A stretch of DNA of 64,000 bases from a virus. Position 1 is the stretch's first letter. Every line of letters begins with the position of its first letter. Made by a program: the position numbers and the translations under genes. The DNA lies in IMG/VR virus record IMGVR_UViG_3300023184_008416, positions 1-64,000 of that record. The stretch is one strand, 5' to 3'. Positions 15,459 through 34,136 of the stretch are shown here, piece by piece. The notes beneath the pieces are model-generated. The model was not told the origin of the DNA. It searched no databases and saw nothing but the letters and a program-made list of their open reading frames with translations.

Positions 15459-15741
15459 CGTTGTCGCTCGAAAAGTTAGTTATCTTGTTTGCAATTATTA
15501 ATAAAGCATCACGTGAGGTGGCTATGTCTTTGACCACACCCTTAATGACAGGTTCATCATAGAGAACCGGCACTTGTGAAGCTTCCGAGATCCTGCGATA
15601 ACAACCGTCGATTATGTCCAACGATTCTTCAACCTGATCTTCTAATGAAAAAATTAATTTACTTAACCTATACGTCATCATCCCAAGACCGATTGTGGTG
15701 GCAAAAAAAATAACCGCAATCAGTGACATCAGGATTAGCAC
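15436..15741 (-). CDS. Small membrane-anchored protein
   Basis: N-terminal hydrophobic helix MLILMSLIAVIFFATTIGLGMM followed by a helical acidic region. Confidence 0.6.
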   Translation of the reverse strand: MLILMSLIAVIFFATTIGLGMMTYRLSKLIFSLEDQVEESLDIIDGCYRRISEASQVPVLYDEPVIKGVVKDIATSRDALLIIANKITNFSSDNDAKNTNQ

Positions 15742-16907
15742 AAATATTCTCCTATTTCATTATCCAGGTAACCATTGATTGCTTCTTGAGAATATTCCTG
15801 AATCAATCGAGGAGCCAGTTCACCGGCCCAACCAAGAGGAACGGATTGGGATTCAATGAATTTTTTTGCTTTTCTTTTGAAATCTTCTTCAGAAGGTGTT
15901 GCCCACTTTGCTCCTTGAACAAAAATTTTACCATCAACCCGACTGGGATGAATTTCTTCCAATTTATGATCAATAGAAATAAATTTACCTTTATTCAAGA
16001 AATCAAGATGTCCAGACCATCCCGTTGCAATTACTGGTAATCCGGCTACTGCTGCTTCCAATAATGGTAAACCATAACCTTCTCCGCGAGTAAGTGAAAC
16101 CAAGGCTTTGATTTTAGGATGTCTATATAATGAGTTCATTTCCTCGTCAGACATTGAACCGTGCAAGAGATGGATTTTAGGAAATTGTTTGTTTCCTCTG
16201 ACCTCTTTTAAGAGTTGATCAACTAAATTCGTGACAGCTTTTTTATCAATAGTTGTATTACGACCAATGTTTGTTTTTAATACAATTCCTACATCACTGC
16301 GATCAGCAAAGGTTTCACAAATCCATTTTATTGCAAAAAACGTATTTTTTCTGTCAGAGAACGGATTATTTCCCGTTATTTGAGCAACAATAAGAAAATT
16401 ATTTTCAGCTTTTAAAGATAAATTAAAAGGGGTAACGTTCAATGAATTTTTTAACGCTTCAGGATAAGCTTCAGGAACTACGGAAATTTTTGTTTTTGTT
16501 TGCCCCGTTTGCTCAAAAGTTCTTTTTGAAAATTGAGAAGGAACAACAACGTGTGTCATAGCGTCACAGCATTTTAACCAATCAGGATTACATACATTGG
16601 TTTCTACACCTGCAGTTAATCCGATATTTAATTTCCCAAGATTTGGATTCCATTCATTAGGAAGTTGTAATTGAAGTGTCACATCTGCATCCGACACAGA
16701 ATTATTTGGAACTGTTTTTTCCATTATTTGACCGATCAGACCATCACATGAATCTCTGTTTAATAACCAAGGTGTATCACCCCACATGACTGGTGAGATT
16801 TTTAAATCTATGTTTTTCTTGGTCAATAACCATTTTGTTATTTGACGAGCGTGGACGCCGTATCCTGACTGCGTCAATACAGGTGCAACAAATACAACTG
16901 ATTTCAT
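15735..16907 (-). CDS. Glycosyltransferase, GT-B (GT4-like)
   Basis: SGYGVHAR N-terminal loop; RGEGYGLPLLEAAVAGLPVIATGWSGHLDFL (E-x7-E). Confidence 0.9.
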   Translation of the reverse strand: MKSVVFVAPVLTQSGYGVHARQITKWLLTKKNIDLKISPVMWGDTPWLLNRDSCDGLIGQIMEKTVPNNSVSDADVTLQLQLPNEWNPNLGKLNIGLTAGVETNVCNPDWLKCCDAMTHVVVPSQFSKRTFEQTGQTKTKISVVPEAYPEALKNSLNVTPFNLSLKAENNFLIVAQITGNNPFSDRKNTFFAIKWICETFADRSDVGIVLKTNIGRNTTIDKKAVTNLVDQLLKEVRGNKQFPKIHLLHGSMSDEEMNSLYRHPKIKALVSLTRGEGYGLPLLEAAVAGLPVIATGWSGHLDFLNKGKFISIDHKLEEIHPSRVDGKIFVQGAKWATPSEEDFKRKAKKFIESQSVPLGWAGELAPRLIQEYSQEAINGYLDNEIGEYLC

Positions 16908-18151
16908 AACACCACCTCAGACCATTTGGATTTCTGAGACCACGAGTTCATAGTATCTTGTAAGGTTCTGTCCCATTCACCAATCAATCTGTCTATTGAA
17001 AATTCTTTCATTGCATAATCTCTGCCTCTTAAACCGAGAGTTTTTCGACCTTCTGGACCCATATTGTAAACTTTCATAATTGCATCAGCATAGGTTTTGT
17101 GAGACACAAAATCTTCATAAATGTATGGTACCATTTGATTGCCGACCAAAGAACGAACTTCGGGATCAAGCCCGACGCCATATTCTTCTCCTGTTTCCCA
17201 ATTAATGACTTGACGTGTTAATCCACCTGTCTTGATCGTAATCATCGGTTTACCACAATACAACCCTTCAAGGGTTGACAGACCAAACCCTTCATTGCAA
17301 GATCTATTAAGAACAACGTCAGATGTGTTGTACAACGAAACCATTTCTTCAAATCCAACTCTGTCTTTAGAAAAGAAAACATTACCTCTTAGACCAAAAA
17401 GATCTATGACGTGGTGAAGATTAGGTCCTTCATGATCATTTGGATCTGTGTGCATTACAAGTGTCGCTTTTCTGTGACCGTGGGTTGCTTCAAGTTGGTC
17501 CAAAAATATTTTCCAAGATTGAATAAGATCACTTGGCATTTTTCTACGAGCATTACGGCTGACATATAATCCAACAAAATGATCTGAACGAGCATCACCT
17601 AGCAATTTTCTTTTCACATCTAAGGCTTTGTCTTCAGGAAACGGTTGATAAATGTCTGAGGGTAGTGCGTGAGGAATAAAATTGGTTTTTTCGGGGAATC
17701 TTTCATGAACCATTTTATAAGTTGGATAGTTGATGCAATTGATAAGATCTGTTGATTCATATAATACTTTATTAAAATCTGGCCATGGATCATTGTCCCA
17801 TAGATGATTGTAAACAATAGGACAAATTTGATGAATTTCGTCTTCCATTTCCCATGTCCAAATGAAAAATCGTGGATCAGTAAATAGAAATAGTGCATCT
17901 GGCTTTTCGGTAGCCAGTAAAACTCTTAGCATATTTCTATCACCAAATCCATCGATAGGTTTAATGATGAAGTCAGGATTTACGGACACAGTTTGGTAAT
18001 CGTTGTGTTTTACTGCTGCCCCTAAACACCTGAAAGTATATTTCCCTGTGTTTAATAAACCATTAATTAACCATCTGGCTTGAATTCCAACGCCGCTTGT
18101 CGATAGTGGGTGATCACTAATAAAGAGAATCTTTTTCTTTTTTTCTGTCAT
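16904..18151 (-). CDS. Glycosyltransferase, GT-B (GT4-like)
   Basis: KILFISDHPLSTSGVG; RNARRK; NEGFGLSTLEGLYCGKPMI (E-x7-E). Confidence 0.9.
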   Translation of the reverse strand: MTEKKKKILFISDHPLSTSGVGIQARWLINGLLNTGKYTFRCLGAAVKHNDYQTVSVNPDFIIKPIDGFGDRNMLRVLLATEKPDALFLFTDPRFFIWTWEMEDEIHQICPIVYNHLWDNDPWPDFNKVLYESTDLINCINYPTYKMVHERFPEKTNFIPHALPSDIYQPFPEDKALDVKRKLLGDARSDHFVGLYVSRNARRKMPSDLIQSWKIFLDQLEATHGHRKATLVMHTDPNDHEGPNLHHVIDLFGLRGNVFFSKDRVGFEEMVSLYNTSDVVLNRSCNEGFGLSTLEGLYCGKPMITIKTGGLTRQVINWETGEEYGVGLDPEVRSLVGNQMVPYIYEDFVSHKTYADAIMKVYNMGPEGRKTLGLRGRDYAMKEFSIDRLIGEWDRTLQDTMNSWSQKSKWSEVVL

Positions 18152-18230
18152 TTTAGATAGTTGTTAATATCGGTTGTTAAAATCAATTGTATATAAAACA
18201 TCGTGCGTTTTTGATAATTTTTTGTTAAAA

Positions 18231-19058
18231 TTAACCACAATGTTCTGTGTTGTGATAGTCACAATAAGTGCAAGATGACCTGTTTTTTAGTGCAATACCT
18301 CGTTTTACAGAAGTCACCATATCATTTACTAATTTTAAATTTCTTTTAATTGTAACATCACCTACAGAAATTGGAAAAAGCTCACAGTGTTTTCCGGGTT
18401 TAGCTGACTTTTTGAGGATGACAAATGCACATCTAATTTCTTTCAGGTTTATATTGTGTTTTTGAGACCAAAAACTCTTATAAAGAACTAATTGGGCTGA
18501 TGTTAGTTTGTCCTGTCTTTTTTGACGTAACCAACCTCTATTTGAGGTTTTCCAATCTAATAACCAAACTAAATCTTCACCCCGTTTACCTTTGGATTTG
18601 ATGACACCGTCAATGAATCCTTTGAATGCGTGTGGATGAGGATTGATTGATTCATAAAGTTGTTCTTCTGCGGCTATAAATTCCCAATCAGGAAATTCTG
18701 TTCCCATGAAATTTGGAATTTCTGCCAAAATGGCAAGACTTTCAGTCTTAGCCCTTTGTAAAGAGGTTTCATCAAATCCCTTTACGCCTTCATTTTTCTT
18801 CCACGCTTCTTCTAACATTGAAATGGTGATTGTCGTGTCCATCACCTTTGTTTTTAAGAAATTTTCACATGCTGCGTGAACGGCAGTTCCAAAATCAAGA
18901 TAAATGCTTGGTTTAAATAAATCTATCTTTTTTACGTGTTGTAACTGATGTCTGTAAGAACACTCGGCCCATGATTTAATTTCAGAGTAAGATACATGTG
19001 GCTTTCCCGTAGGAAGCAACTCAAAAGAGTGATTATTCATTGTATCTAGACAATACAA
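18231..19058 (-). CDS. PD-(D/E)XK exonuclease, Cas4/AddB-like with a predicted Fe-S staple
   Basis: HVSYSEIKSWAECSY, FGTAVH, FKGFIDGV...LLDWKTS, QLVLY and C-terminal CTYCDY..C. Likely start is ATG 19040. Confidence 0.85.
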   Translation of the reverse strand: MYCLDTMNNHSFELLPTGKPHVSYSEIKSWAECSYRHQLQHVKKIDLFKPSIYLDFGTAVHAACENFLKTKVMDTTITISMLEEAWKKNEGVKGFDETSLQRAKTESLAILAEIPNFMGTEFPDWEFIAAEEQLYESINPHPHAFKGFIDGVIKSKGKRGEDLVWLLDWKTSNRGWLRQKRQDKLTSAQLVLYKSFWSQKHNINLKEIRCAFVILKKSAKPGKHCELFPISVGDVTIKRNLKLVNDMVTSVKRGIALKNRSSCTYCDYHNTEHCG

Positions 19059-19084
19059 TTGATTTGACGATTAGATCAAATTTT

Positions 19085-19891
19085 TTATTTGTTGATGCTT
19101 TGCATGACCCTAGAATATTCTTGAGCAACAAAATTTATATCTATGTGTTGCAAGTTCCAAGGATATTCTGGCCTTATCCATGAATCATTGGGACAAGTCG
19201 TACCGTATGCCCCAACAACCTCGGGTACACCTGGTTGATTGTTGTGAATGATTGGTGTACCTTGAGACAAGGACTCTAAAATTTCATAAGGACAAGACAC
19301 TCGCGTTGAATGACAAATTGTCCAATTTGACATTGAAAACAATTCTAATCTTTCTTGACGAGGTAGACTCGGTACAAAAAAAACATCATTTCCTTTTGCC
19401 TGTCTTAGATCGCCGTCACCATGTAGTATTAAACACGAATTTGGGTTATTGGATTTTAAATTTTTATATGTTTCAATAACTGTTTTTAAAGAATCATCTG
19501 TTGACCAGGCTGGCGATGAAGCTATAAAAATACTCTGATAATCTTTGTGTATTGAAGCAAGTCCATCATTCAAATTCGTTGGTTTGACATTAATATCAAC
19601 TGCTTCATGTATTGTGAACGTATTTTGGTAATTTAAATCATTGCTATTATGTGTTGAAAAAATAACTGCTCTGGGATTAAATCTTAATGATTCTTTGTTA
19701 CAGGTTTTGTCCCATCTTAATAAGACATTATCAGAATTGTTTAATTCAGAATCATTACCAAATGATAAAAGTATGTCAGGATCTTTGTCTACAATTTTAT
19801 GTCCCAGTCCTGAGAGTTGAGGAATCAAAAGTTGTAGAAATAGTCTAGTGTCAGGTTGGGTTAGAGATTCACCAGCTAATTTATAATTCAT
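19085..19891 (-). CDS. Divergent GT-B glycosyltransferase-like protein
   Basis: C-terminal SCPYEILESLSQGTPIIHNNQPGVPEVVG resembles the GT4 nucleotide-binding motif, with the first Glu missing. Confidence 0.65.
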   Translation of the reverse strand: MNYKLAGESLTQPDTRLFLQLLIPQLSGLGHKIVDKDPDILLSFGNDSELNNSDNVLLRWDKTCNKESLRFNPRAVIFSTHNSNDLNYQNTFTIHEAVDINVKPTNLNDGLASIHKDYQSIFIASSPAWSTDDSLKTVIETYKNLKSNNPNSCLILHGDGDLRQAKGNDVFFVPSLPRQERLELFSMSNWTICHSTRVSCPYEILESLSQGTPIIHNNQPGVPEVVGAYGTTCPNDSWIRPEYPWNLQHIDINFVAQEYSRVMQSINK

Positions 19892-20253
19892 GATCGTTTT
19901 TTGACTGTTTCAATTACGGGCACTGCGTATGGTGTACCTTTTAACATCACTGCTAACAATGCTAGTTCTTTTGTTTCTACATTTTCAAGTGAAGCACGTT
20001 GGGTAAAAATATTGGGATCCAATTCTTGGGTGTTGTTTATTGCTACTGAATCATAATAAGCTTGTGCTATCCAATTCAGCGATTCATTTGAAATTTTTAC
20101 CTCAGATGAAACAAACACTTCTTGTAATGATTCAAAAATTGTTCCATAGATTGAAATACACGTCTCTTTGTTTAAAGATTTATCTTTGTATTTAGTGAGT
20201 CTTTCCACCAATAATTTTGAAACAGATTCATGAAAATTTCCATGTTTGCTCAT
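19888..20253 (-). CDS. Hypothetical protein
   Basis: 121-aa ORF with ATGA overlaps on both sides. Confidence 0.65.
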   Translation of the reverse strand: MSKHGNFHESVSKLLVERLTKYKDKSLNKETCISIYGTIFESLQEVFVSSEVKISNESLNWIAQAYYDSVAINNTQELDPNIFTQRASLENVETKELALLAVMLKGTPYAVPVIETVKKRS

Positions 20254-21215
20254 TTGTCATTAACTTTCTTTGTAACTGCTCTGCCAAGCATATGTTCCCA
20301 ATCCCTATTATTTTCAGGTCTTATTTCAAGATTTTTATCCCAAGCTGCCTGTAACATGGTAATCTTGACACCAAGGTCTTTACTGAGACTTTTTAATGCG
20401 TTCAAGTCCTTCGGGAAACAGTGACCTCCAAACCCGCGGACATAGCGACCATCATGAGTTGGAACAGGGCCGGGAACAGACCAATGAGAAGTGCCAAGGC
20501 GTGTGTCAAATTTAGCATATTCAATGACCTTATCATAATCAATGTTTAAACCCTTACCATCGAGCGCCTCACAAATTTGTGCAATTTCATTGGCAAAAGA
20601 AACCTTGACAGCAAGAAACGTATTGATTGTGTACTTCACCATCTCTGCAGTTGTTGACGAAGTTTTGATCAATGGTACCTTTGGGAAGGCAGCCTGGAAA
20701 ACCTGCTTCACCTCGTTGATCCATGGTCGAGGACCACCAAGAATAATGCGATTTTGATTGCGCATGTCATCAAGCGCGTTAGCTTCTGTTAAAAATTCAG
20801 GATTAAATACAACATACAGACCTTGCTCGTTAAATCTTCTATTCCAACGCTCTGTTGATCCAGGTGGAACTGTAGACTTTATGACGGCAATTCTATCTCC
20901 AGGAACTTTTGCTAATTCTTCAAGAGCACCCTCTACAATGGAAAGATCAGCTGATCCATCCTCATGCATTGGTGTTGGTAGACACACGAAGTAAATGTTA
21001 GAAAAACCAGGTGTTCCACCATCTTCATTGTCAAGAATTAATTCTTTGACTGAATCCGGATAACCTGCTACCGGATCTGAATGACTTGGTAGAGCACCTC
21101 TGGCGTATTTACCTGCTTTATCATAAGCATATACATCAAATCCGCGTTCAGAAAACACCGTTGTTAGAGTTCCGCCAACAAAACCTTGACCAATGACGGC
21201 AATTGATTGCTTCAT
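20250..21215 (-). CDS. UDP-glucose/GDP-mannose 6-dehydrogenase family protein (short, no C-terminal domain)
   Basis: GQGFVG, IKSTVPPG, FNPEFL, AEMVKY..NTFLAVKVSFANE and catalytic GFGGHCFPKD. Confidence 0.9.
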   Translation of the reverse strand: MKQSIAVIGQGFVGGTLTTVFSERGFDVYAYDKAGKYARGALPSHSDPVAGYPDSVKELILDNEDGGTPGFSNIYFVCLPTPMHEDGSADLSIVEGALEELAKVPGDRIAVIKSTVPPGSTERWNRRFNEQGLYVVFNPEFLTEANALDDMRNQNRIILGGPRPWINEVKQVFQAAFPKVPLIKTSSTTAEMVKYTINTFLAVKVSFANEIAQICEALDGKGLNIDYDKVIEYAKFDTRLGTSHWSVPGPVPTHDGRYVRGFGGHCFPKDLNALKSLSKDLGVKITMLQAAWDKNLEIRPENNRDWEHMLGRAVTKKVNDK

Positions 21216-22132
21216 TTAATTCCTCTTAAGTTTAAATAATTCTTTTCAAAGAATTCTATTGTTTCCACTAGGCCTTGTTCAAGAGGAGTATAGATAATTT
21301 TGCAACCTAGATTTTTTAGTTTTTCGTTGCTGCTTGGTTTTCTGTGTTGCCCATTTGGTTTGGTGGTATCAAATTTGATGTTGCCATTAAATCCTATTAT
21401 TTTTCCGATGAGAGAAGCAAGGTCACCAATTGATATTTCGTCTGTGCAACCGATGTTTATTGGAAATTCATCATTGTAGTTTTCCGCCAACCACCAAATA
21501 ATTTTTGCTGCATCACGAGCAAAAGTGAATTCACGAAGAGGAGTTCCATCGCCCCACAAGACGACATCCGTGCCATCACGTTTGGCTTCATAAAACTTTC
21601 TAATTAGAGATGGGATTACATGTCCACTATTTAAATCAAAATTATCGTGAAGCCCGTAGAGGTTATTTGGGACGATGGTGATATAATTGCATCCCCATTG
21701 TTGTCTATAGGCTCGTGATTGAACGTCGACCATTCTTTTGGCGTATGCGTAGCCAAAATTAGATTGATGAGGTGGGCCGTTATGAAGTTGATCTTCGGTT
21801 AGTGGATATGAAACATATGCAGCGTCGGGATAAATACAGGTGCTTAAAATAGAAATTAATTTTTTTACTCCGCACTCTTTGGCGCCCTGAAAAACGTTGT
21901 TATTGATGGCTGAGTTAATTTTATAAAAATCTGCAACATAATCAGTGTTGACTTTTACTCCGCCTACTTTTGCGGCGCAATTAATCCATACATCGTTGTT
22001 GCTAGAAATTGCCTGGTGTAATTCTAAGTTTAATCCGTAAGAAGTGGGGGCATAAATTTCTGTTTGTTTTGGTCTTTCACAAATAATTTCATGTCCCAAT
22101 AACCCAAATCCACCAAAAACCGTTGCTTTCAT
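21212..22132 (-). CDS. fcl: GDP-L-fucose synthase
   Basis: [54 protein letters not shown]; adjacent to gmd. Confidence 0.93.
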
Positions 22133-23094
22133 TTTAATTCTCTTTGAAGATCAGCTTCATACATCATTTTTATTAAATCGTTAAAACTTGTTTTTGGTGT
22201 CCATCCCAATTTTTTTCTTGCTTTGCTGGCGTCACCTTGAAGAAAAGGAACTTCATGAGGTCTATATAATCTTGAATCTATCTCAAGATATTTCTTGTAG
22301 TCTAAGTCGGCCAATGCGAATACTCTTTCCACAAATTCTTTGACTGAATAACATTCTCCTGTCGCAATCACATAGTCGTCGGGTTGATCCTGTTGCAACA
22401 TGAGCCACATGGCTTCAACATAGTCTCCTGCAAATCCCCAATCTCTTTTTGCATCCAGGTTACCTAGAAATAATTTGTCTTGCTTACCAAGTTTAATCCT
22501 AGCAACGGCTCTGGTGATTTTTCTGGTGACAAATGTTTCACCTCTGCGAGGGCTCTCGTGATTAAAAAGGATACCAGTAGATGAATGCATTCCATAACCA
22601 ACTCTATAATTTCTCACGAGGTTATGAGAAAATAGTTTTGCGCATGCATAAGGAGATGCGGGAGTCATTCTTGTTTCTTCATTTTTCATGGGATCCATGT
22701 TATCCCCATACATTTCTGAAGATGATGCTTGATAAAATCTAGCATTCGGAACCACATTTCTACAAGCTTCCAATAATCTCATGACTCCCATGGCTACGGA
22801 ATCAACCGTTTCTTCTGGGACATCAAAAGATGTACGAACGTGTGATTGAGCTGCTAAATTATAGATTTCATCTGGTCTATATTCTTGAAGAATTCGATAC
22901 ATGGACCCAACGTCATTCAAACTTCCGTACTGGAGTTTTAAATTTGGATTGTCATATAAATGATCAATATTTGACGTATTGATTACGGATGTTCTTCTTT
23001 TTAGACCAACTACTGTATAACCCTTTTGAAGAAGAAATTCTGCGATGTAAGAGCCGTCTTGACCGGTGATACCAGTAATTAAAGCCTTTTTCAT
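22129..23094 (-). CDS. gmd: GDP-mannose 4,6-dehydratase
   Basis: [72 protein letters not shown]. Confidence 0.97.
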
Positions 23095-24089
23095 GATAAA
23101 ATCTTTTTCACCGCAATGGTTTTTAACTTATTATAGGTTTCCGTAGTAAATGAAAGATAATTTGAGCCCGATTTATAGTGAAGAATAAAATGTTTATCTG
23201 AGCCTGCTTCAGCAATAAATGCAATGTGATATGGATCTGGTAAGTTTGCTTTCTTTTCTTTTATTAAAGAAAGAATTTTTTTTACCATGTCGGAAGTATA
23301 TACATCATATGAACAATAATCCTTTTCATATGGAAAGGATTTCATTTCATTAAACTTTTGGCCGCCAGTGTGTTTAAAATCAACTAAATTCATTTTTTTG
23401 TCAAAATCTAAATGGTAATTTATATTCCCATTTAAGATGTAATGTATTTTTGTTCCAAATTCATTATTAATTTCATCACGAATACTATGTTCTTCTAACA
23501 AAAGAAAATTTAACATTTTATTTTTTAAATAAAAGTGAGTTAGTGCTCCAACGTCCATATTTTCATTATGGATTGGCGCTGGTGTCCATTCAAGATTTTT
23601 CAAATCAGGATTTTTTTCTAAATTTAGAATTACAAAAGCATTCCACATATAGTGAATTTGATGATTTTGTCTATACTGTGGTATGTAGACGACGTCTTTA
23701 TCTACAATTAATTTTTCTAGGTCGACATAATCGATGAAAAACATATCCGAATCAATGATACAAATTTTTTTTTCATTAGTTACATAGTGTTTAAAAGACC
23801 ACATTAATGGATATGAACATGCGACATTTGGTGTAGTGTACCTATTTCCAATAAAATTGGTGACCCCCTGGGTCACTTGCATTTTGGTATCTAGTTTTAT
23901 GTCTACGCATTTAATGTTAAGATTATTGCATACTTTTTTTATTTGTTCATATTGAACTTCATTATCAACAGCATTGTTAAATACTACAAATTCGTAATCA
24001 CACTGCAAATATTTTTGCATTGATTCATACTGCATTTCAATAAAATCGGGTCTTTTATGCGCGTATGTGAATATTGTTATTTTGCTCAT
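23091..24089 (-). CDS. Putative GT-A fold glycosyltransferase
   Basis: [13 protein letters not shown]...[10 protein letters not shown]-terminus and [11 protein letters not shown] (DxD) motif; cluster context. Confidence 0.55.
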
Positions 24090-24934: not shown

Positions 24935-24938
24935 AGAT

Positions 24939-26269: not shown

Positions 26270-26280
26270 TGTAACCTCTT

Positions 26281-26919: not shown

Positions 26920-27851
26920 TAATCCTTATTTTGATTCTCATAGTCGAGCTTTTGCTGTAGACACTGTTCATACGTATAAAAGTTGCCGTCTCTATGCGCA
27001 TAATTCCAATTTGGAATTAATGAATCACCACAGGACCAGTATCCATCACTTCCTTTATAATCGCCCCAATACATGGGGGCGATTACATTAACATTGTCAT
27101 TTAACCAAATAGGCCAAAAGCTGAAACTGGATGCTGATATAATCACATTTTTTGCGTTATATAGGATTGTCCAATCCATCCATGTTGGCCCTCCTATATG
27201 GTGTGATGCTTTTAAATTATCTTTTAACTGAGTTGTTGATCCACCTACAATTGGAACGCCGGGACAAACATTGGAGCAGTATAGTGGATCGTCAGTTACT
27301 GCCACAAACTTAATACGTGAATTTTTTTGTAACATTTCTTTCATTCCACGCGTGTAGTATTCTCTAAGCAAAAATGCACTGCTACCTAGAAAATCTCCAC
27401 CCCTAACGTGGATAACGCAGATATCTTTATCTGACCATTCTGTTATATTGTGACTTATTTTTGGTTTAATCCATTCTTTCAAATCATTACGAAAATTTTG
27501 AATATAATTGATCGATTGCATAACTCCATCGATCTTTGTGTTGTCTTTTATTTTTAAAAGGTTTTCATCCAATTTTCCAATAAAAATTTTTGTTCTTGGA
27601 TGTGTGTGTCCCTTTTCTCGATAATAAAAATTTATCTCGTTTGGCAGGGTATGAGGTGGACCACCTTCAGGACCATTTCCTCCCACTACTTTCATTCCCA
27701 TGTCAATTTCTAAAAATTCACTACCTTTGTATTTATGTTGGCTTTGAATACCAAAATTAAAACCTCTTAGCTTTGCAACACACCTTGTAACTGCATAACA
27801 CCACAATTGATTTCCCAGGCCTTGACCATCATAAAATTCTGTTATTATCAC
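26910..27851 (-). CDS. GT11-like alpha-1,2-fucosyltransferase
   Basis: GLGNQLWCYA, IHVRGGDF, VTDD, ISASSFSFWP. Confidence 0.85.
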   Translation of the reverse strand: MIITEFYDGQGLGNQLWCYAVTRCVAKLRGFNFGIQSQHKYKGSEFLEIDMGMKVVGGNGPEGGPPHTLPNEINFYYREKGHTHPRTKIFIGKLDENLLKIKDNTKIDGVMQSINYIQNFRNDLKEWIKPKISHNITEWSDKDICVIHVRGGDFLGSSAFLLREYYTRGMKEMLQKNSRIKFVAVTDDPLYCSNVCPGVPIVGGSTTQLKDNLKASHHIGGPTWMDWTILYNAKNVIISASSFSFWPIWLNDNVNVIAPMYWGDYKGSDGYWSCGDSLIPNWNYAHRDGNFYTYEQCLQQKLDYENQNKDYWK

Positions 27852-27894
27852 TTGATAAGTGTACTAAATTTAGTCTTTAATGTTTACTTTAATA

Positions 27895-28695
27895 CTATTT
27901 TTTTACCATATGAGCATCCCACCAATGTTTGGGAATTTTATCCCAAAATACAGGGAGAACAACGTTTTTATTACAACCACTTAACCACCAAGAACACTCA
28001 TTAAAAGTAGTACCCAATGTAAAAACCATTTTTTTACACTTAGATAGTAAAATCATTTCTACTAAAGCTTGCATGTTTTGATCATAATCAATTGTATATC
28101 CACTATCTATTATTTCTTTTCTTTCATAGACTAAACATCTATTTTTGTATTTATTTTTATAATAATTTTTTACTGATAAATCGTCTGATGCTAGAAAAAA
28201 TGTTTCTTTAGTGTTTTTTATTTCATCCTCAAATCCTTGAAAATTGATAAAATCAAGTTGTTGAAAATCATTTCTACGATACCTAATATTTAAACAAGTC
28301 ATATTATCAAAATCCCAATCTTTTGATAATTCATCAACTTTTTCAATAATTTTTTTGTTTATATTTATTTTTAGTGTATCCCATATTGGGAGATACTTTT
28401 TGATAAAGTAGTTGGGCGTATCATTAAATAAAAAATCAATTGTTCTATATTTTTCAATATATTCTTCTTCTTCTGGATCTGCTAAAAGTTGCCATACAGC
28501 ACCAGTGTTTGGGTATTTTTTGATATCATCACTAGTCGCCAATTTTAAATTATCAAAAAGTAAAGCATCTGCTGGATGTTCAATTAAAATTTGATCCCAT
28601 CTTGCCAAGTGCGATACATATGACTTTAATCTATTTCCCATGCCTGCTGATTTTAACACAACAAACGTTCCTTGATTTTTTATTTTTTTAATCAT
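27895..28695 (-). CDS. Fucosyltransferase-superfamily protein (GT11/GT23-NodZ/O-FucT-like)
   Basis: AGMGNRLKSY, LNIRYRRND, FFLASDD, EMILLSKC...TTFNECSWWLSG match fucosyltransferase motifs I-III. Confidence 0.7.
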   Translation of the reverse strand: MIKKIKNQGTFVVLKSAGMGNRLKSYVSHLARWDQILIEHPADALLFDNLKLATSDDIKKYPNTGAVWQLLADPEEEEYIEKYRTIDFLFNDTPNYFIKKYLPIWDTLKININKKIIEKVDELSKDWDFDNMTCLNIRYRRNDFQQLDFINFQGFEDEIKNTKETFFLASDDLSVKNYYKNKYKNRCLVYERKEIIDSGYTIDYDQNMQALVEMILLSKCKKMVFTLGTTFNECSWWLSGCNKNVVLPVFWDKIPKHWWDAHMVKK

Positions 28696-29312
28696 AAATT
28701 TTTATTTTTTAATAAAACGTCCGTTTTGAAATCATACACTAGTTCCCAACTATCACCTAATAATGATAAAATTTTTGATAAATTTGCTTGTTGAGCATAA
28801 TACTCTTCATTTGAATATTCTGTATAAAAATATTTGACATTTTTTTCAAATGAATTTTTACCACTCAAAATTAAGTCTTCTTCTGCACCTTGAACGTCGG
28901 CCCAAATAAAATCAATATACTCAATATTATTTATTTCACAAAAAGTATCTAATTTGGTTGAATTTACTTCTATTTGTTGATCAAATTTAATAAAAGGCCA
29001 AGTCTCTATGTGCTTTTTAGGCTTTTTTATGCTGCCAGAATAACACAAGTCATCTGGATTATCAGATCTTGATCTATTAAAGATTAATTTTCCATCAATA
29101 TTAGAAACAACTCCCTCATAAAGATGATGTTTTGAATACTTTATGTTATCTTTGACAATCTTTATGTTTTTGGGTTCAGGCTCAAAACAATAAATTTCAA
29201 CATCATTAAACGTATTAATAAATTCTTGTGTATCTTTACCATCAGCACAACCAATTTCAAAAATAACTGGGTTATCTTTTTTTAAAAGATGTTTAATCGT
29301 TTGTTTATTCAT
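28692..29312 (-). CDS. FkbM-family methyltransferase (NoeI-like)
   Basis: VIFEIGCADGKDT, YCFEPEP, YSGSIKKP, IDFIWADVQGAE, YFYTEYS. Confidence 0.88.
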   Translation of the reverse strand: MNKQTIKHLLKKDNPVIFEIGCADGKDTQEFINTFNDVEIYCFEPEPKNIKIVKDNIKYSKHHLYEGVVSNIDGKLIFNRSRSDNPDDLCYSGSIKKPKKHIETWPFIKFDQQIEVNSTKLDTFCEINNIEYIDFIWADVQGAEEDLILSGKNSFEKNVKYFYTEYSNEEYYAQQANLSKILSLLGDSWELVYDFKTDVLLKNKNL

Positions 29313-29971
29313 TTCTTGAACCTTTCATAATAAAAATTTTTACCATGAAATCCAAAAGGAACTATTCCTTCAATTTCAGGTATTTTTGTTTCGTGAGAAA
29401 AATATTTTGCAATATCAATGTTTGCAAAATTACAACCATTTTGTTCATAAATGTGTCGATAATTACAGGTAATGAATCCATCTTCATTATAAAAGCCATG
29501 GAATGGCTTCCATTCCAAATTTATATTGTTGGGTAAATCAATTAATTTTTTACTTCTTAAAGAAAAGCCACCATTACCTACCCTAATCAAATTTTTATTG
29601 ATATCTCTATAAGAAAAATTATCTTTTGGAATAGGCCATGGTGCACCTATGTAATCATAATTTAAAAATTCATTAATCCAAGCACTTGGGTTAATTACAA
29701 AACCATCATATTGTACAGTAAGTGCATAAGGTGTTTCTATGTACTTACCTAAAGAATAAATCATATGGTAACTGTATTGATCTATATTTTCAATTTTTTC
29801 AATTTCATTAAATTGAATTTTTGTAGGCAAATTAGACGGCAAATTATGAGTTATTAATTTGATGTCAGCAAAGTTTATTTGCTCACAACTTTTTTGTAAT
29901 GCAAAAATTGTTTCATCTATCTTTACAGAAGATAAAGCAACCAGTGTAACATCTTTTAAATTCAGCATCAT
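29309..29971 (-). CDS. DUF5672-like putative glycosyltransferase
   Basis: TVQYDGFVINPSAW..EFLNYDYIGAPW, RVGNGGFSLRSKK, NEDGF, PFGFHG. Confidence 0.75.
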   Translation of the reverse strand: MMLNLKDVTLVALSSVKIDETIFALQKSCEQINFADIKLITHNLPSNLPTKIQFNEIEKIENIDQYSYHMIYSLGKYIETPYALTVQYDGFVINPSAWINEFLNYDYIGAPWPIPKDNFSYRDINKNLIRVGNGGFSLRSKKLIDLPNNINLEWKPFHGFYNEDGFITCNYRHIYEQNGCNFANIDIAKYFSHETKIPEIEGIVPFGFHGKNFYYERFKK

Positions 29972-30000
29972 TTGATTATATTTTTTATCAATGAATATGT

Positions 30001-30714
30001 TTAAAATATTTTATTTGAAAAAGTCTGAAATTTGGACATAACATAAAGCAATTCTTTTCTTTTTGTTTCCTCAGATATAAAATTGCTCAATTGAAAGCTT
30101 GATGTTCTATTCACCACGGTTATTTCATTTAAAATAATTGGATCACCAAATTTTTGGTGCAATCTTTTGTAATATTCGACATCCATTAACCACACCAAAT
30201 TTTCATCAAAAAATATTAAATTAGGATTATTTCTAATTGTTAGAACACTGGGTGAACTTATTGTGTTATTTCCTAAGTGTATTTGATCATGGTATTTTGG
30301 AAAAAATTTTCTGGTCATCTGGTGACCGTCTGGGCTGTGTTCGCAAGCGCTAATTAGCCAATCCCCGGTTAGTTGTTTCTTTATTTCATTTGTAGTGTTT
30401 TCTAATGAATTAGAATTGAATAAAAAATCATCCTGAAACAGGATTTTTATCCAATCACCGTTGCAATGTCTAACTGCATTATTAATGTTAGATGATGAAT
30501 TTCCTATTTTTTCTTCATTTTTAAGATATTTAATTTTTAATTTTGTTGACCATAGATCACATAAATTTTTAATTTCATTATCTTTACTGTGATCTGAAAT
30601 GATTATTTCAAAGTCATGAAAAGTTTGTTCTAACAATTTTTGAAAACTAAATTCTAAAAATTCTTTACCTTTTCCATGCATCTCGTAAGTTGGAATTGCA
30701 ATTGAAAGTTTCAT
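30001..30714 (-). CDS. GT2 glycosyltransferase
   Basis: MKLSIAIPTYE, QTFHDFEIIISDHS, IKILFQDDF, ISSPSVL, WLMDVEYY. ATGA-coupled start at 30714 (ORF track starts at 30726). Confidence 0.88.
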   Translation of the reverse strand: MKLSIAIPTYEMHGKGKEFLEFSFQKLLEQTFHDFEIIISDHSKDNEIKNLCDLWSTKLKIKYLKNEEKIGNSSSNINNAVRHCNGDWIKILFQDDFLFNSNSLENTTNEIKKQLTGDWLISACEHSPDGHQMTRKFFPKYHDQIHLGNNTISSPSVLTIRNNPNLIFFDENLVWLMDVEYYKRLHQKFGDPIILNEITVVNRTSSFQLSNFISEETKRKELLYVMSKFQTFSNKIF

Positions 30715-31481
30715 ATTGTTAACCACCCATCAGGAAACAAGTCTTGTGTATCTTTTGGACCTTTTGGACCAAACCAGTTTAATGGTGCAACAATTTTTCC
30801 ACCATTTTGATGTGGTCCGAGGTATGCTCCCCACCAAGAAAATGAAGAATTTGCTATGATTGCATTACGACATTTTGACATTAAAAGTAGATCAGTTACG
30901 TCATCATAACTAAATTCATTAGCAAACACTATGTTTAATGAATGATTTATTATTTCATTTATAAATGTTTGTTTACACCACATAATGTCGTCACTAAATA
31001 CTATTACTTTTTTAGGATCAATCGCCGAGATAGCTTTCCTATAATAATCAAGTTCTAAATTTGTGTGATAATCAGATTTATTTAAATAATCTGTTCTTCT
31101 AACATGTAGGAAACAATTATCTTCACAAACTTTTTGTAGATTGTTGTCTATCGCACTTTTAAATTCAAATAATTTTAAAATTTCATCTTCGCAGTGATCC
31201 CAATACTTTTTTGTTTGAAAATAACCCTTGATGTCAATGTTGTCTGGAGTTTTTTCAAAAAATTCAGAATCAAATGAAAACTGTCTTTCTTCTATTCTGG
31301 TCTTTGGAAGATCAGAATACTGAACACTTTTTTTATCATGCATTTTAAAAACATCAAAAAGTCTTCCACCCGGTGAGTAATAATCATATTTTTTATGATT
31401 TGCTATACCTACCAGTGAAGCATATTGAAACATTTGATTTCCAAGTCTGCCGTTACTTCCTATTGATAGGGCTGTTATCAT
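30711..31481 (-). CDS. GT11 alpha-1,2-fucosyltransferase
   Basis: GRLGNQMFQYA, GYFQTKKY, LHVRRTDY, FSDDIMWC, IANSSFSWWGAYL. Confidence 0.92.
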   Translation of the reverse strand: MITALSIGSNGRLGNQMFQYASLVGIANHKKYDYYSPGGRLFDVFKMHDKKSVQYSDLPKTRIEERQFSFDSEFFEKTPDNIDIKGYFQTKKYWDHCEDEILKLFEFKSAIDNNLQKVCEDNCFLHVRRTDYLNKSDYHTNLELDYYRKAISAIDPKKVIVFSDDIMWCKQTFINEIINHSLNIVFANEFSYDDVTDLLLMSKCRNAIIANSSFSWWGAYLGPHQNGGKIVAPLNWFGPKGPKDTQDLFPDGWLTI

Positions 31482-32152
31482 TCAACACCATAAATTATTT
31501 TATACCATGTTGCAAGAGATCTGGGGATATTAGGATTGTACGTGGGATTTGGAACGTGTTTATATGTCACAAGTGCTTCACTTAAATTTGATAATTTAAA
31601 CCACGGCAAGCATCTCATCCACAAATCAAAATCTTCTGCAAGATTAAATAAATCAAAATATCCTGCACACTTTTCAAGAATTCTTTTTCTAAAGATCACA
31701 CTTGGATGACCAATAGAATTAGATCCGGATAACATTTCTTTTGCAATCAAATCATGACTTAAAGGATAGGAGGTATTATACAAAAAATTATTGTTTTGAT
31801 CAACTACCTTTAATTGAGTGCCCAAAATATCAATTTCTTGATTTAAATTTAAGTATTCAACTTGTTTGATCAATTTATTGTTATGCCAAATATCATCAGC
31901 ATCTTGACGTGCTATTAAATCTCCCCTAGATTCTTTAAGACCTAAATTTAAAGCGGGTACAATGCCAGGGCTTGAATGAAAAATTTTAATTCTTTCATCA
32001 TTTAATTCTTTAATTTTATTTTCAGTGTTATCTGTTGTTCCATTAACAATACATAATATTTCAATATCATTGACATTCTGGTCAATGACGGATTGAATTG
32101 ATTGTTTAATTGTATTTTCTGCATTTTTTACAGGTATGATAACAGATATCAT
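31478..32152 (-). CDS. GT2 glycosyltransferase
   Basis: MISVIIPVKN, ALNLGL, IARQDADD, GHPSVIFRK, AEDFDLW. Confidence 0.92.
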   Translation of the reverse strand: MISVIIPVKNAENTIKQSIQSVIDQNVNDIEILCIVNGTTDNTENKIKELNDERIKIFHSSPGIVPALNLGLKESRGDLIARQDADDIWHNNKLIKQVEYLNLNQEIDILGTQLKVVDQNNNFLYNTSYPLSHDLIAKEMLSGSNSIGHPSVIFRKRILEKCAGYFDLFNLAEDFDLWMRCLPWFKLSNLSEALVTYKHVPNPTYNPNIPRSLATWYKIIYGVE

Positions 32153-32153
32153 T

Positions 32154-34040
32154 TTAATGATTCACTTTTACTTTAATATGTGGTGTTTTTGTTCCATCCC
32201 ATTTCCTGTGCCAAACCCATCCACCGATGTTTTCTAATCTATTTGCTAGTTCTTGTATTTCTTCATCTGTAACATCTACCCAAGGTTTATCAAAAAACAT
32301 ATTATTTTCTTTTGTATCTATTTGAGGAATGTTGTACATGCTTTCCCAAAATCTTGACCAGTATTTTTGGTATGTTTTTATTTTTCTTGGTAAATTTTGC
32401 CAGCTATAATGGACAACATGGGGTAGATTATCTATGACCTGATTGATCCAATTTTCATAAGCACTTAATGCATTTTGATCGCCGTTTAGTGCCAAATGTC
32501 TAATTTTTTCTGATTCTTGAGATATGAAAGTTGCATGAGGAACTCTTTCTCCAGAATCTTCATAAATCATGTCACATGAGTCTGTTCCTGTGGCTGCATA
32601 TAACTTTCCTTCTTCATCATATCTACGTAACTCTTTTGGAATGCCATGAGTAATATTTTTAGAATTTCTGCTTAATCTCCATTTCCATGGAGTAACGTCT
32701 ATTCTAACTTTTCCATTTTTACCCCAAAGATCTATTACGGGTAATGATATGATCTCAAGATTTTTTGACATCTTTTTTGCTAAATCTACAATTTTAGCTT
32801 CATATCCATCTGGCACAATTTCATCTGAATCCATTTGCCAGCAAAAATCGCTGGTACACATTTTTCTAGCCTCGGCCTTCAACAGACCATCAACTTGAAC
32901 AGCAAATCTTTTGTCATTAAAATCTTTTTTGCTGACCTTAAGTTTTAATTTACTTTCTTTTTCAGATAACTCTTGTAATTTTTCTATGGTACCATCTGTA
33001 GAACCACAATCTACTACACATACTTCATCACAAAAGTTTAACATTGATTTAACGCATTGCAAAAATGGGTACTCCCCATCAATGCAATTGTATGTTGTAG
33101 TATACCCACTTATAGTTGGCTTATAATCCATTATTTTTTTAATAGCTGACCAAAACATTTCGGGAGCGCTGTAAAGATAATTGTAAATTTCATCAAATGA
33201 TCCATTGAACCATTCTTCTTTTGAATGTTGTACGTAATCGTTTAATTCAAGTTTACAACCAAGAAGTTTAGCTTCAATAACCATTCTAGGACACGTATCA
33301 GCACCAGACGGCAAATAAACAAATCCTTCTGCAAAAGCCATTTTAGCAAGCATTTCATCGTAAGATACGTTCCATACTACTTCGTAGTCTTTTTGATTGT
33401 CTTTGCACCACTTTTTTGCTGTTTCTGCACCCTTTACCCAAGAATTTGAACCCAAAACTATCCAACCTTTTTTGGAATCTTGAGATGAAATTACTTGATG
33501 TTTCAATAATTTTATTTTTGCGAGTGTCTCTTTGCTAAAAATGCTGGATATTACGATATTGTCTTTTTCATATAAAAATGGAAAGTTTGTAATATATCTA
33601 ATTTTTTGAGACTCTGACATCCACCAGATGCTCTGTGCACCTTGAAAGAAGGCAGAAATAATCTTTCCGTTGAGTTGATTGTGGCAATCACATGGAAGAC
33701 CGGTAATATTCTCGTGCTTTTCTGGTGACCTATAACTGCAATATTTGTAGTCATATTCCAACACAGAATATTTCATGTTTCCGACTATCGTTGGAATTAA
33801 GTTGGAATTAAGTTGAGCAAAATTTCCAAAAATCCAGTGACAATGTTGTCCGGATCTCAAAATATCAATATTAATCTGTGAACTTTTGATTTTTACGTAA
33901 TTTACAGGACATGAATCAATTAATGCCTGAGTTGTTAACTCAGCTCCTCCAACATAATCTTCTATAAAAAAATCAGAAACAAATACTACTTTAGTTTCAT
34001 TGGTAATTTGAGGAGTTACTTGAAATGGACTTTGATTCAT
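32154..34040 (-). CDS. Two-domain glycosyltransferase (GT-B-like N-terminus plus GT2-like C-terminus)
   Basis: N-half GGAELT...KG...DTCPRMVIEAKLLGC; C-half ISGYTTTYNC, VCVVDCGSTDGT, CWQMDSDE. Confidence 0.8.
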   Translation of the reverse strand: MNQSPFQVTPQITNETKVVFVSDFFIEDYVGGAELTTQALIDSCPVNYVKIKSSQINIDILRSGQHCHWIFGNFAQLNSNLIPTIVGNMKYSVLEYDYKYCSYRSPEKHENITGLPCDCHNQLNGKIISAFFQGAQSIWWMSESQKIRYITNFPFLYEKDNIVISSIFSKETLAKIKLLKHQVISSQDSKKGWIVLGSNSWVKGAETAKKWCKDNQKDYEVVWNVSYDEMLAKMAFAEGFVYLPSGADTCPRMVIEAKLLGCKLELNDYVQHSKEEWFNGSFDEIYNYLYSAPEMFWSAIKKIMDYKPTISGYTTTYNCIDGEYPFLQCVKSMLNFCDEVCVVDCGSTDGTIEKLQELSEKESKLKLKVSKKDFNDKRFAVQVDGLLKAEARKMCTSDFCWQMDSDEIVPDGYEAKIVDLAKKMSKNLEIISLPVIDLWGKNGKVRIDVTPWKWRLSRNSKNITHGIPKELRRYDEEGKLYAATGTDSCDMIYEDSGERVPHATFISQESEKIRHLALNGDQNALSAYENWINQVIDNLPHVVHYSWQNLPRKIKTYQKYWSRFWESMYNIPQIDTKENNMFFDKPWVDVTDEEIQELANRLENIGGWVWHRKWDGTKTPHIKVKVNH

Positions 34041-34049
34041 TATGGAATG

Positions 34050-34078
34050 AATTTAAGATTATTACTTGAGATGTACAA
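34050..34078 (-). promoter_or_regulatory. Candidate promoter for the glycan cluster (TTGTAC-N17-TAAATT)
   Basis: Sigma70-like spacing, ending 10 nt before ATG 34040 in the divergent intergenic region. Confidence 0.35.
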
Positions 34079-34136
34079 CAGAATTTTTGTATGTTTTTTT
34101 ATTTGAAAACATATTTATAAACGGGAGATTTCTTCT

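Follow-up and report, generated by a model that had tools for sequence, protein, structure and literature searches.

Chloroviruses and mimiviruses encode soluble glycosyltransferases together with GDP-fucose and UDP-sugar dehydrogenase enzymes and make their glycans in the cytoplasm; these glycans are O-methylated and rich in fucose, and carry strain-specific decoration on a conserved core. In bacterial serotype loci, structure-specific Wzx/Wzy or Wzm/Wzt proteins normally travel with the transferases. Most O-antigen glycosyltransferases are soluble, and Und-PP-linked assembly, too, generally relies on soluble enzymes. Virion glycosylation was reportedly described for mycobacteriophages Che8, Corndog and Myrna by Freeman et al. 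in 2023. We count as precedents the glycans on the mycobacteriophage capsid and tail tube (PMC12619734) and the virion glycoproteins of jumbo phage XacN1 (PMC5852040). For the cyanomyovirus S-SCSM2R, 13 glycosyltransferases, 22 genes and a pgaA-like export gene have been reported, and for S-SCSM1, gmd, fcl and three fucosyltransferases (PMC9602691, PMC12801897). The "Moraphage" lineage consists of freshwater jumbo phages with predicted Bacteroidota hosts and a Rhodothermus phage among the relatives; four of its core orthogroups are putative glycosyltransferases (PMC12619734).

We analyzed a block of minus-strand genes (positions 15735-34040) of an uncultured jumbo phage in a window of 64,000 nucleotides, which is positions 1 to 64,000 of the IMG/VR record IMGVR_UViG_3300023184_008416. 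The block is a tightly packed, 18-kb operon that runs on into a late-sigma-like gene and baseplate genes, all co-oriented (Table 1). Profile and structure searches of the ORFs showed that the coordinates and gene content given by an earlier, sequence-only reading were right. Its estimate of about 12 glycosyltransferase genes agrees with the 12 glycosyltransferase-like ORFs counted here, the DUF5672 and DUF6492 proteins being only putative transferases; its three GT4-like genes correspond to two full GT4 and one compact 268-aa GT1-family protein; and the two GT2, the GT-B/GT2 fusion, the two GT11 and the GT17 were all recovered by Pfam and, for the fusion, by an AF2 model. The sigma-like gene (PHROG 234) and the baseplate wedge gene (PHROG 219) do share the orientation of the cluster.

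Table 1. Features of the gene block and its flanks, in window coordinates.
Feature	Position	Strand	Evidence
Divergent intergenic region, head of operon	34041..34136	.	ATATTTA motif oriented toward the plus-strand gene, not the glycan operon
628-aa bifunctional glycosyltransferase	32154..34040	-	Compact GT-B (GT4-like) N-domain and GT-A (GT2) C-domain; conserved anchor heading the locus
GT2 glycosyltransferase, 224 aa	31478..32152	-	Pfam PF00535, E 1.8e-26; homologs in 4 related loci
GT11 (alpha-1,2-fucosyltransferase family), 256 aa	30711..31481	-	Pfam PF01531, E 1.6e-22
GT2 glycosyltransferase, 241 aa	30001..30726	-	Pfam PF00535, E 1.8e-11; zero homologs among 14 related loci
DUF5672 protein, 220 aa, putative transferase	29309..29971	-	Pfam PF18922, E 2.2e-20; no sequence relative in PDB
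FkbM-family methyltransferase, 206 aa	28692..29312	-	Pfam PF05050, E 3.8e-11
NodZ/FUT8/O-FucT-superfamily fucosyltransferase-like protein, 266 aa	27895..28695	-	Atlas features and structure only
GT11-family protein, 313 aa	26910..27851	-	Pfam PF01531, E 1.3e-6, above cut-off
Probable class I SAM methyltransferase, 212 aa	26281..26919	-	Methyltransf_24, E 4.7e-4, below Pfam gathering score
Probable class I SAM methyltransferase, 218 aa	25613..26269	-	Methyltransf_24, E 2.9e-4, below Pfam gathering score
FkbM-family methyltransferase, 225 aa	24939..25616	-	Pfam PF05050, E 1.4e-8
GT17-family glycosyltransferase, 305 aa	24086..25003	-	Pfam PF04724, E 3.7e-26
DUF6492 protein, 332 aa, putative transferase	23091..24089	-	Pfam PF20102, E 5.4e-7; no PDB relative
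GDP-mannose 4,6-dehydratase (Gmd)	22129..23094	-	NCBIfam TIGR01472, 456 bits, above cut-off; Pfam E 3.5e-131
GDP-L-fucose synthase (Fcl)-like SDR	21212..22132	-	NCBIfam NF047922 best match, E 1.2e-67, below equivalog cut-off
Two-domain nucleotide-sugar dehydrogenase, 321 aa, without C-terminal UDP-binding domain	20250..21215	-	TIGR03026, 204 bits
121-aa protein	19888..20253	-	Recurs in cassettes of 4 related loci (L001, L003, L008, L014; 47-56% identity); no Pfam/NCBIfam match
Compact GT1/GT4-family glycosyltransferase, 268 aa	19085..19891	-	Pfam PF00534, E 1.2e-8
PD-(D/E)XK nuclease	18231..19058	-	Pfam PF12705, E 9.5e-17; adjoins GT4 pair
GT4a, retaining-type GT-B glycosyltransferase, 415 aa, conserved	16904..18151	-	Pfam PF00534, E 4.6e-14
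GT4b, GT-B glycosyltransferase, 390 aa, conserved	15735..16907	-	Pfam PF00534, E 6.5e-8
101-aa protein, one N-terminal hydrophobic helix	15436..15741	-	Overlaps GT4b end by 7 nt
Late-sigma-like (gp55-type) transcription factor	14688..15458	-	PHROG 234, E 2e-6; directly downstream, co-oriented

Other assignments stood in part. The further fucosyltransferase resembles NodZ/FUT8/O-FucT clusters by Atlas features (score 0.96-0.97) and structure (TM 0.68-0.71) and has a GMGNRL motif at the N-terminus, but it has no match in Pfam or NCBIfam. Gmd exceeds its NCBIfam cut-off, whereas Fcl, though the best match, does not. The nucleotide-sugar dehydrogenase keeps the GxGxxG and GGHCFPKD motifs (NAD motif, catalytic Cys) and is of equal length in six related loci, but it matches profile positions 2-308 of 413 and lacks the C-terminal domain. 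Two of the four methyltransferases are solid FkbM enzymes, while the other two fall below the gathering score. The PD-(D/E)XK nuclease and the 121-aa ORF lie inside the block and had been passed over in the earlier reading.

The locus is not a one-off, as its synteny is shared by at least 87 independent contigs, and the 628-aa anchor gene is carried by at least 305 IMG/VR contigs. Because of this recurring synteny and the presence of T4-like TerL, MCP and baseplate genes, the locus is phage DNA and not a misassembled bacterial fragment, an outcome that the sequence-only reading had named as fatal to its proposal. Four GT domains (the GT-B/GT-A fusion, GT4a and GT4b) are conserved in a large clade of jumbo phages that are uncultured and of freshwater type. 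The cassette between these core genes is exchanged horizontally and is hypervariable, its length ranging from 0 to over 13 kb; one locus (L084) lacks it altogether. Grouping 155 cassette ORFs gave 95 families, of which 75 are singletons (mean Jaccard index 0.07).

The fusion protein has more than 2460 homologs, the best 120 of which share 56-66% identity over the full length, and no match in any cultured phage; C101, H109, C117 and C119 are invariant among the homologs compared. In its AF2 model (pLDDT 91), residues 14-307 form a GT-B/GT4-like domain (VIA Z about 20 vs SPS, BshA, PglA and PimA). The Pfam GT2 match covers residues 315-437, and for the GT-A domain (residues 303-619) SunS (Z 15.6) and ThuS are the top structural matches. 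SunS and ThuS are peptide S-glycosyltransferases, and the modeled likeness may lend weak support to a protein acceptor. GT4a orthologs are 47-66% identical with an invariant EX7E region, and GT4a is 29-33% identical to proteins of immuto, Mel-JY01, LR756508 and RM378; in nine GT4b orthologs E276/E284 and G15-G17 are invariant. The nuclease occupies the same place in all relatives, and the nuclease-GT4a-GT4b trio has the same gene order, with reciprocal similarity, in two cultured phages: Flavobacterium phage immuto (28%, 32% and 34% identity, respectively) and Microcystis phage Mel-JY01 (28%, 30-38% and 31%). What would have been annotated vaguely as many glycosyltransferases becomes a defined, testable module, whose conserved part is present in these two cultured phages.

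Downstream of the block, the position of the late-sigma-like gene is conserved among relatives. The 101-aa putative membrane-anchored protein, conserved in most relatives, is translationally coupled to GT4b. An ATA-N-TTA motif precedes many other genes, including the baseplate wedge gene, which has the same orientation as the block; no promoter-position copy was found on the coding strand of the glycan operon. Since the operon lacks this motif there and runs into the late-sigma gene, its enzymes may precede the late proteins.

Profiles of five priming and export families were searched: PF02397 (WbaP/PglC-type) and PF00953 (WecA-type initiating phosphoglycosyl transferase), both with positive controls, PF01943 and PF04932 (flippase with polymerase), and PF01061 (ABC-2 permease). 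None of the five was found in G000 and four partial relatives, or in four genomes with a completeness of 92% or higher, two of which have terminal repeats; PF02397, PF00953, PF01943 and PF01061 were not found in the complete immuto and Mel-JY01. The lone match in the flippase, polymerase and permease searches was sub-threshold and contained stop codons. By hydropathy, the block proteins have zero transmembrane segments, none of 921 cassette ORFs from 87 loci has three or more hydrophobic segments, and in a complete, 298-kb genome (G006) multiple segments occur only in tape-measure-like and small holin-like proteins. The earlier statements that the window has no initiator, Wzx/Wzy or Wzm/Wzt and no multi-pass enzyme are thus upheld, the former well beyond the window, in the four near-complete genomes, the two cultured relatives and the 921 cassette ORFs.

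Two bacterial-type arrangements were compared. Cytoplasmic transferases and NDP-sugar genes with a variable center between conserved flanks are found here as in Wzx/Wzy- or ABC-transporter-dependent loci, but no initiating phosphoglycosyl transferase, flippase/polymerase or ABC-2 permease was found in the genomes searched. For GtrABC-type serotype conversion, hydropathy revealed no multi-pass membrane protein in the cluster, contig or cassettes.

With this locus the phage encodes a glycan assembly line whose enzymes are all soluble. The cassette is predicted from sequence to supply GDP-L-fucose (through Gmd and Fcl) and probably also a uronic-acid-type precursor. With its four GT domains, the conserved gene core would build an inner core of at most four sugars; the cassette contributes about eight more transferases (three fucosyltransferase-like) and four methyltransferases. 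Judging from this enzyme content, the product would be a strain-specific, fucosylated, O-methylated oligosaccharide on the conserved inner core. The earlier reading of a complete cytoplasmic pathway is sustained as far as the enzymes are entirely soluble, but absence of export genes from the phage does not show a cytoplasmic end point, because host Und-P priming and export could serve, and solubility does not separate the readings, because Und-PP-linked assembly also uses soluble transferases.

We tentatively favor a model in which the whole chain is assembled in the cytoplasm of the infected cell, straight onto an acceptor that the phage itself encodes; exposed virion proteins are the likeliest candidates. 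The constant core beside a changing cassette fits a constant, phage-encoded acceptor; diverse cassettes that all lack flippase and export genes argue for an end point needing no flipping; and virus-encoded soluble transferases with nucleotide-sugar enzymes occur together here, as in autonomous viral protein glycosylation. Adjacency to baseplate genes is weak evidence for a virion acceptor, because the neighbors of the homologous module in immuto are genes for replication, chaperonin and lysis and not structural genes. The 1147-aa wedge-like protein is enriched for [ST]-G-[ST] (15 observed vs 2.2 expected), which is a lead only; the residues before these sites are hydrophobic, and the sites may be no more than strand-turn motifs. 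It is possible, though we hold it with considerable doubt, that a very abundant aquatic clade of tailed jumbo phages coats its virions with a serotype-like glycan: soluble cytoplasmic enzymes would place a conserved four-sugar core on structural proteins, and exchanged cassettes would add the outer sugars, in this phage fucosylated and O-methylated. If so, widespread environmental phages would have variable sugar coats, which could alter adsorption, stability, grazing and recognition by host defences, and the four-domain core, as a new system for glycosylating proteins in the cytoplasm, would be of interest to glycoengineering.

Alternatively, the soluble transferases might extend a host Und-PP-linked (or lipid A-core/O-glycan) intermediate at the inner membrane face, and host flippases or ABC exporters with ligases or oligosaccharyltransferases would bring the new glycan to the surface of the infected cell, where it might mask receptors from superinfecting phages or block progeny re-adsorption. 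GT2, GT4, GT11, FkbM methyltransferases, Gmd and Fcl are generally known as typical of O-antigen and capsule loci, and an arms race at the cell surface would yield a hypervariable cassette. In immuto the module is surrounded by early-type genes, in this phage it lies upstream of the sigma gene, and a small putative membrane-anchored protein is coupled to GT4b. For the analogous cyanomyovirus islands of S-SCSM1, S-SCSM2R and P-SSM2, this putative role is the standard interpretation (PMC9602691, PMC12801897). However, we consider such envelope remodeling rather unlikely: with no multi-pass proteins among the cassette ORFs and no PGT, Wzx, Wzy or Wzm in complete genomes, host exporters would have to accept dozens of unrelated structures, and conservation of the four-domain core despite probably different hosts (Flavobacterium, Microcystis) is hard to reconcile with host-specific lipid-linked acceptors. 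If true, lytic jumbo phages would be reshaping the glycans of the cell surface to an extent that experiments have yet to demonstrate.

The glycan might also be attached to a cytoplasmic acceptor other than the virion (a glycolipid, an unbound oligosaccharide, or a host or phage protein that is not part of the virion) and might act, for example, as decoy, osmolyte or an inhibitor of defence freed at lysis. No observation links the glycan to virions, the GT4 relatives BshA, MshA, PimA and sucrose-phosphate synthase act on small molecules or lipids, and the 121-aa protein recurs in cassettes; but no comparable viral product is known to require so many transferases, and serotype-like diversification suggests an exposed, recognized surface, which makes this explanation unlikely. 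Hypermodification of DNA is highly improbable. A glycan on a modified base (e.g., hydroxymethylcytosine) would evade restriction while the PD-(D/E)XK nuclease degrades unmodified DNA; GT-B glycosylation of phage DNA is established in T-even phages, the nuclease is conserved beside the GT4 pair, and cassette turnover could reflect diversifying selection by restriction systems. Yet no known DNA glycan comes close to requiring about 12 transferases, three fucosyltransferase-like enzymes and four methyltransferases, and immuto, which has the orthologous trio, has no glycosylated nucleoside reported by HPLC-UV-MS: its digested DNA yielded canonical dA, dC and dT with formyl-preQ1 replacing dG, and "glycosyl" has zero occurrences in the text of that paper (bioRxiv 10.1101/2023.04.13.536721).

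Among described systems, O-antigen and capsule serotype loci share with this locus the conserved flanks, the variable center of transferases, NDP-sugar genes and methyltransferases, and differ in having an initiating phosphoglycosyl transferase, Wzx/Wzy or Wzm/Wzt, and a ligase. Moraphages are similar by description; they were placed outside the T4 group in a study that did not treat the transferase locus (PMC12619734). The islands of P-SSM2, S-SCSM1 and S-SCSM2R, assigned to "LPS / cell-wall synthesis and modification", likewise belong to T4-like aquatic myoviruses with at least 13 glycosyltransferases and resemble the locus in gene content (gmd, fcl, GT11/NodZ/O-FucT-like fucosyltransferases, GT2; also sugar epimerases). 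To call the locus unprecedented would be too strong, since the literature already contains cyanomyoviruses with gmd/fcl and 13 glycosyltransferases; the earlier reading overstated its case, as similarly large sets are known from the tailed phages S-SCSM2R, S-SCSM1 and P-SSM2, although none of them is characterized. A core with a swappable cassette and the clade-wide lack of membrane partners are not described there (PMC9602691, PMC12801897). Mycobacteriophages, whose own transferases decorate capsid and tail-tube subunits, and XacN1, a jumbo myovirus with virion glycoproteins, resemble the favored virion-protein model, but they have two to four transferases, no comparable nucleotide-sugar pathway and no hypervariable cassette. 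Chloroviruses and mimiviruses infect eukaryotes, and their capsid or fibril glycans are proven, whereas a virion acceptor is here a prediction; the only sequence link is a generic GT4 match to chlorovirus B736L. If the virion-protein model is true, the locus would give prokaryotic viruses a counterpart to the capsid glycans of chloroviruses and would add a new route of protein glycosylation in the bacterial cytoplasm.

The minus-strand block running from position 34040 down to 15735 contains 21 ORFs with almost no gaps, which were assigned using Pfam, NCBIfam, a structure model and Atlas. Twelve are transferase-like: the GT4 pair at the tail (GT4a and GT4b), a 268-aa compact GT1-family protein, two GT2, two GT11, a NodZ/FUT8/O-FucT-like protein, GT17, DUF5672, DUF6492, and the 628-aa fusion protein at the head. 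Sugar-nucleotide enzymes are represented by Gmd (over the equivalog cut-off), an Fcl-like SDR and a nucleotide-sugar dehydrogenase, and methyltransferases by two FkbM and two weaker Methyltransf_24-like proteins. The gene content proposed in the sequence-only reading (about 12 glycosyltransferases, gmd with fcl, a dehydrogenase and four methyltransferases) was recovered, two of the methyltransferases being weak; that reading lacked a PD-(D/E)XK nuclease and the 121-aa ORF inside the block. PDB sequence searches with the DUF5672, DUF6492 and 266-aa proteins gave no useful match. The dehydrogenase has no C-terminal UDP-binding domain at all, but homologs of equal length in six related loci show that it is a conserved two-domain form and not a pseudogene. 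The 121-aa ORF was considered as the missing C-terminal domain of this short dehydrogenase and as the N-terminal half of the 268-aa transferase, and both assignments were rejected, as the respective genes are not adjacent in several relatives; its Atlas model is poor and uninformative. Within the cluster the GC content is 26% at 28-30 kb and reaches 39% at 20-22 kb, where gmd, fcl and the dehydrogenase gene lie; such swings fit a mosaic, horizontally assembled cassette.

Coordinates of the features discussed in the text (window positions unless a related locus, L016, L017 or L084, is named)
Feature	Position	Strand	Remark
628-aa fusion protein	32154-34040	-	contains C101, H109, C117, C119
Nucleotide-sugar dehydrogenase	20250-21215	-	321 aa; NAD-binding GxGxxG and catalytic GGHCFPKD kept
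PD-(D/E)XK nuclease	18231-19058	-	adjoins GT4 pair
PD-(D/E)XK nuclease, L016	7807-8748		adjoins GT4 pair
PD-(D/E)XK nuclease, L017	6932-7828		adjoins GT4 pair
GT4a	16904-18151	-	415 aa
GT4b	15735-16907	-	390 aa
Conserved small protein	15436-15741	-	101 aa
Collagen-like fibre gene, L084	2-3307		same strand as 628-aa gene
Collagen-like fibre gene, L084	3574-8961		same strand as 628-aa gene
ATA-N-TTA	10523	-	motif scan of whole contig
ATA-N-TTA	34111	+	motif scan of whole contig
ATA-N-TTA	59637	+	motif scan of whole contig
[ST]-G-[ST] entry	3674-7117	-	tripeptide counts
[ST]-G-[ST] entry	7119-8636	-	tripeptide counts
[ST]-G-[ST] entry	50616-51809	+	tripeptide counts

The window covers the initial 64 kb of an IMG/VR viral contig of 161,915 bp with a GC content of about 33%, estimated by CheckV to be 45% complete. 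Its TerL is T4-like, the nearest cultured relatives (41-46% identity) being those of the Microcystis phage Mel-JY01 and of the Flavobacterium phage immuto, whose host is Flavobacterium sp. LMO8. Baseplate wedge homologs, a collagen-like fibre and a gp23-like major capsid protein encoded at 70780-72681 are also present, which identifies the source as a distant T4-like jumbo phage. The possibility, raised in the sequence-only reading, that the cluster is a misassembled bacterial fragment is ruled out by synteny recurring in at least 87 independent contigs, some with terminal repeats. Megablast of the whole cluster against cultured phages gave no match.

IMG/VR was searched with the 628-aa protein, then with GT4a and then with an alignment as query, yielding 8, 6 and at least 305 contigs, respectively. 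All relatives whose sequence extends far enough share one gene order: the 628-aa fusion gene, a variable cassette, the nuclease, GT4a, GT4b, a small N-terminally anchored protein, a sigma-like gene and baseplate genes. Between relatives the anchor genes are 42-66% identical, and the cassettes differ almost entirely: 155 cassette ORFs from 15 loci form 95 families, 75 of them singletons, with a mean pairwise Jaccard index of 0.07, and nine of the 17 cassette genes of the window have no homolog in the other 14 loci. Pfam families tallied in 138 cassette ORFs include GT1, GT2, GT11, GT6, epimerases, dehydratases, Gmd, UDP-sugar dehydrogenases, methyltransferases, UDP-galactopyranose mutase and carbamoyltransferases. 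Cassette length varies from zero to more than 13 kb; at L084, the locus without a cassette, the nuclease and the GT4 pair come immediately after the fusion gene, and two collagen-like fibre genes immediately precede it. The EX7E region and the glycine-rich loop are retained in both GT4a and GT4b, which suggests that the two are catalytically active.

A structure model of the 628-aa protein (32 homologs used, pLDDT 91) contains a compact GT-B fold at residues 14-307, with Z of about 20 to sucrose-phosphate synthase, BshA, PglA and PimA, and a GT-A fold at residues 303-619, which most closely resembles the peptide S-glycosyltransferases SunS and ThuS and, after them, K4CP, TarS/TarP/RmlT and SpsA. 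The model bears out the earlier label of a GT-B/GT2 fusion. More than 2460 homologs came up in the protein search, the best 120 of which are 56-66% identical over the full length and come from contigs of up to 351 kb; TBLASTN against cultured phages gave no match. One 628-aa homolog (61% identity), labelled at NCBI as a Caulobacteraceae MAG protein, lies on a 213-kb contig that is probably phage sequence binned into a bacterial genome. Three cysteines and a histidine of the GT-B domain, invariant in the 32 homologs, may form a zinc site, which would be unusual for GT4-like domains.

GT4a is 29-33% identical to homologs in Rhodothermus phage RM378, an uncultured 484-kb phage, immuto and Mel-JY01. 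The last two keep their nuclease, GT4a and GT4b homologs in the same order, and a different sugar cassette comes next; in immuto it comprises GT2, two WecE-type aminotransferases, a PglD-like acetyltransferase, a methyltransferase and an epimerase as well as further transferases. The core predates the clade. The adjacency of the nuclease and the GT4 pair is held across phages whose TerL proteins are only about 41-46% identical; no functional link of the nuclease to the glycan is evident.

None of the cluster proteins has a hydrophobic segment (Kyte-Doolittle, 19-residue window, threshold 1.6), in agreement with the earlier remark that no multi-pass membrane profile is present. Pfam HMMs for PglC/WbaP-type and WecA-type initiating transferases, Wzx, Wzy/ligase and ABC-2 permeases, for which all positive controls worked, gave a single sub-threshold match, containing stop codons, across this contig and four partial relatives. 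They gave none in six larger clade genomes, of which four are at least 92% complete and two of those four have terminal repeats, and the first four models gave none in the complete immuto and Mel-JY01 genomes. None of 921 cassette-region ORFs from 87 loci has three or more hydrophobic segments. The lack of export machinery noted for the window thus extends beyond it and is a property of the whole lineage rather than a window-edge artefact. In the complete 298-kb clade genome several hydrophobic segments occur only in a tape-measure-like protein of 1818 aa and in small holin-like proteins. Pfam assigned no family to two hydrophobic proteins of this contig, 644 and 1803 aa long, or to a 381-aa multi-TM protein near the immuto module. 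The conserved 101-aa protein, encoded between GT4b and the sigma-like gene with a 7-nt overlap with the GT4b end, has a single hydrophobic helix, at its N terminus, and a cytoplasmic part that is also helical; it may act as a membrane tether or in regulating the sigma factor.

Promoter motifs were also considered. TATAAATA was rejected as a T4-type late promoter, having only five copies in 162 kb and no enrichment; the match close to the head of the operon is an ATATTTA read in reverse, which faces a plus-strand gene. Counting both strands, the 162-kb contig has only 79 copies of ATA-N-TTA (often ATACTTAA), yet the motif lies at most 70 nt upstream of 20 genes, the baseplate wedge gene among them, versus 2.6 expected, making it a candidate phage promoter element.

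The cluster encodes many transferases and methyltransferases in a soluble pathway predicted to be able to make GDP-L-fucose, and it is reasonable to suppose that the product is a fucosylated, methylated oligosaccharide on a conserved inner core. We tentatively favor a phage-encoded acceptor, probably the virion, although we give this reading slightly less than an even chance. It is favored because structure-specific exporters never travel with the very diverse cassettes, because phages that probably differ in host share an unchanging core, and because virus glycosylation has precedents in chloroviruses and mimiviruses. Further precedents are mycobacteriophage virions (summarised in PMC12619734) and the virion glycoproteins of XacN1 (PMC5852040). 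Counted against a virion acceptor are the position of the immuto module, which lies between chaperonin/lysis genes and a run of small ORFs and is not linked to structural genes; the glycan operon leading into the sigma-like gene, with no ATA-N-TTA in promoter position on its coding strand; and the coupling of a small membrane-anchored protein to GT4b. Soluble transferases are, moreover, also normal in lipid-linked assembly. The main rival, rather doubtful in our view, is remodelling of the host envelope via host carriers, the usual reading of cyanophage islands (PMC9602691, PMC12801897). That the glycan is placed on DNA is very improbable, since the enzyme set is far too large and immuto DNA contains only canonical dA, dC and dT plus formyl-preQ1 (bioRxiv 10.1101/2023.04.13.536721).

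The tripeptide [ST]-G-[ST] occurs 15 times in a 1147-aa wedge-like protein versus 2.2 expected (Poisson p ~2e-8) and is mildly enriched in a few other large proteins; as it nearly always follows a hydrophobic residue, these sites may be strand-turn motifs and not sequons.

Large glycan gene sets have been published for the tailed phages S-SCSM2R (13 transferases), S-SCSM1 (gmd, fcl and three fucosyltransferases) and P-SSM2 (PMC9602691, PMC12801897) and for the 'moraphages', with four core transferase orthogroups (PMC12619734), so the bare observation of such a set is not new. New are the definition of a four-domain core, with a fusion protein that lacks a cultured representative; the serotype-like turnover of the cassette; the showing, from complete genomes, that these phages encode no membrane partner; and a connection to two cultured phages, which makes the question of the acceptor accessible to experiment.
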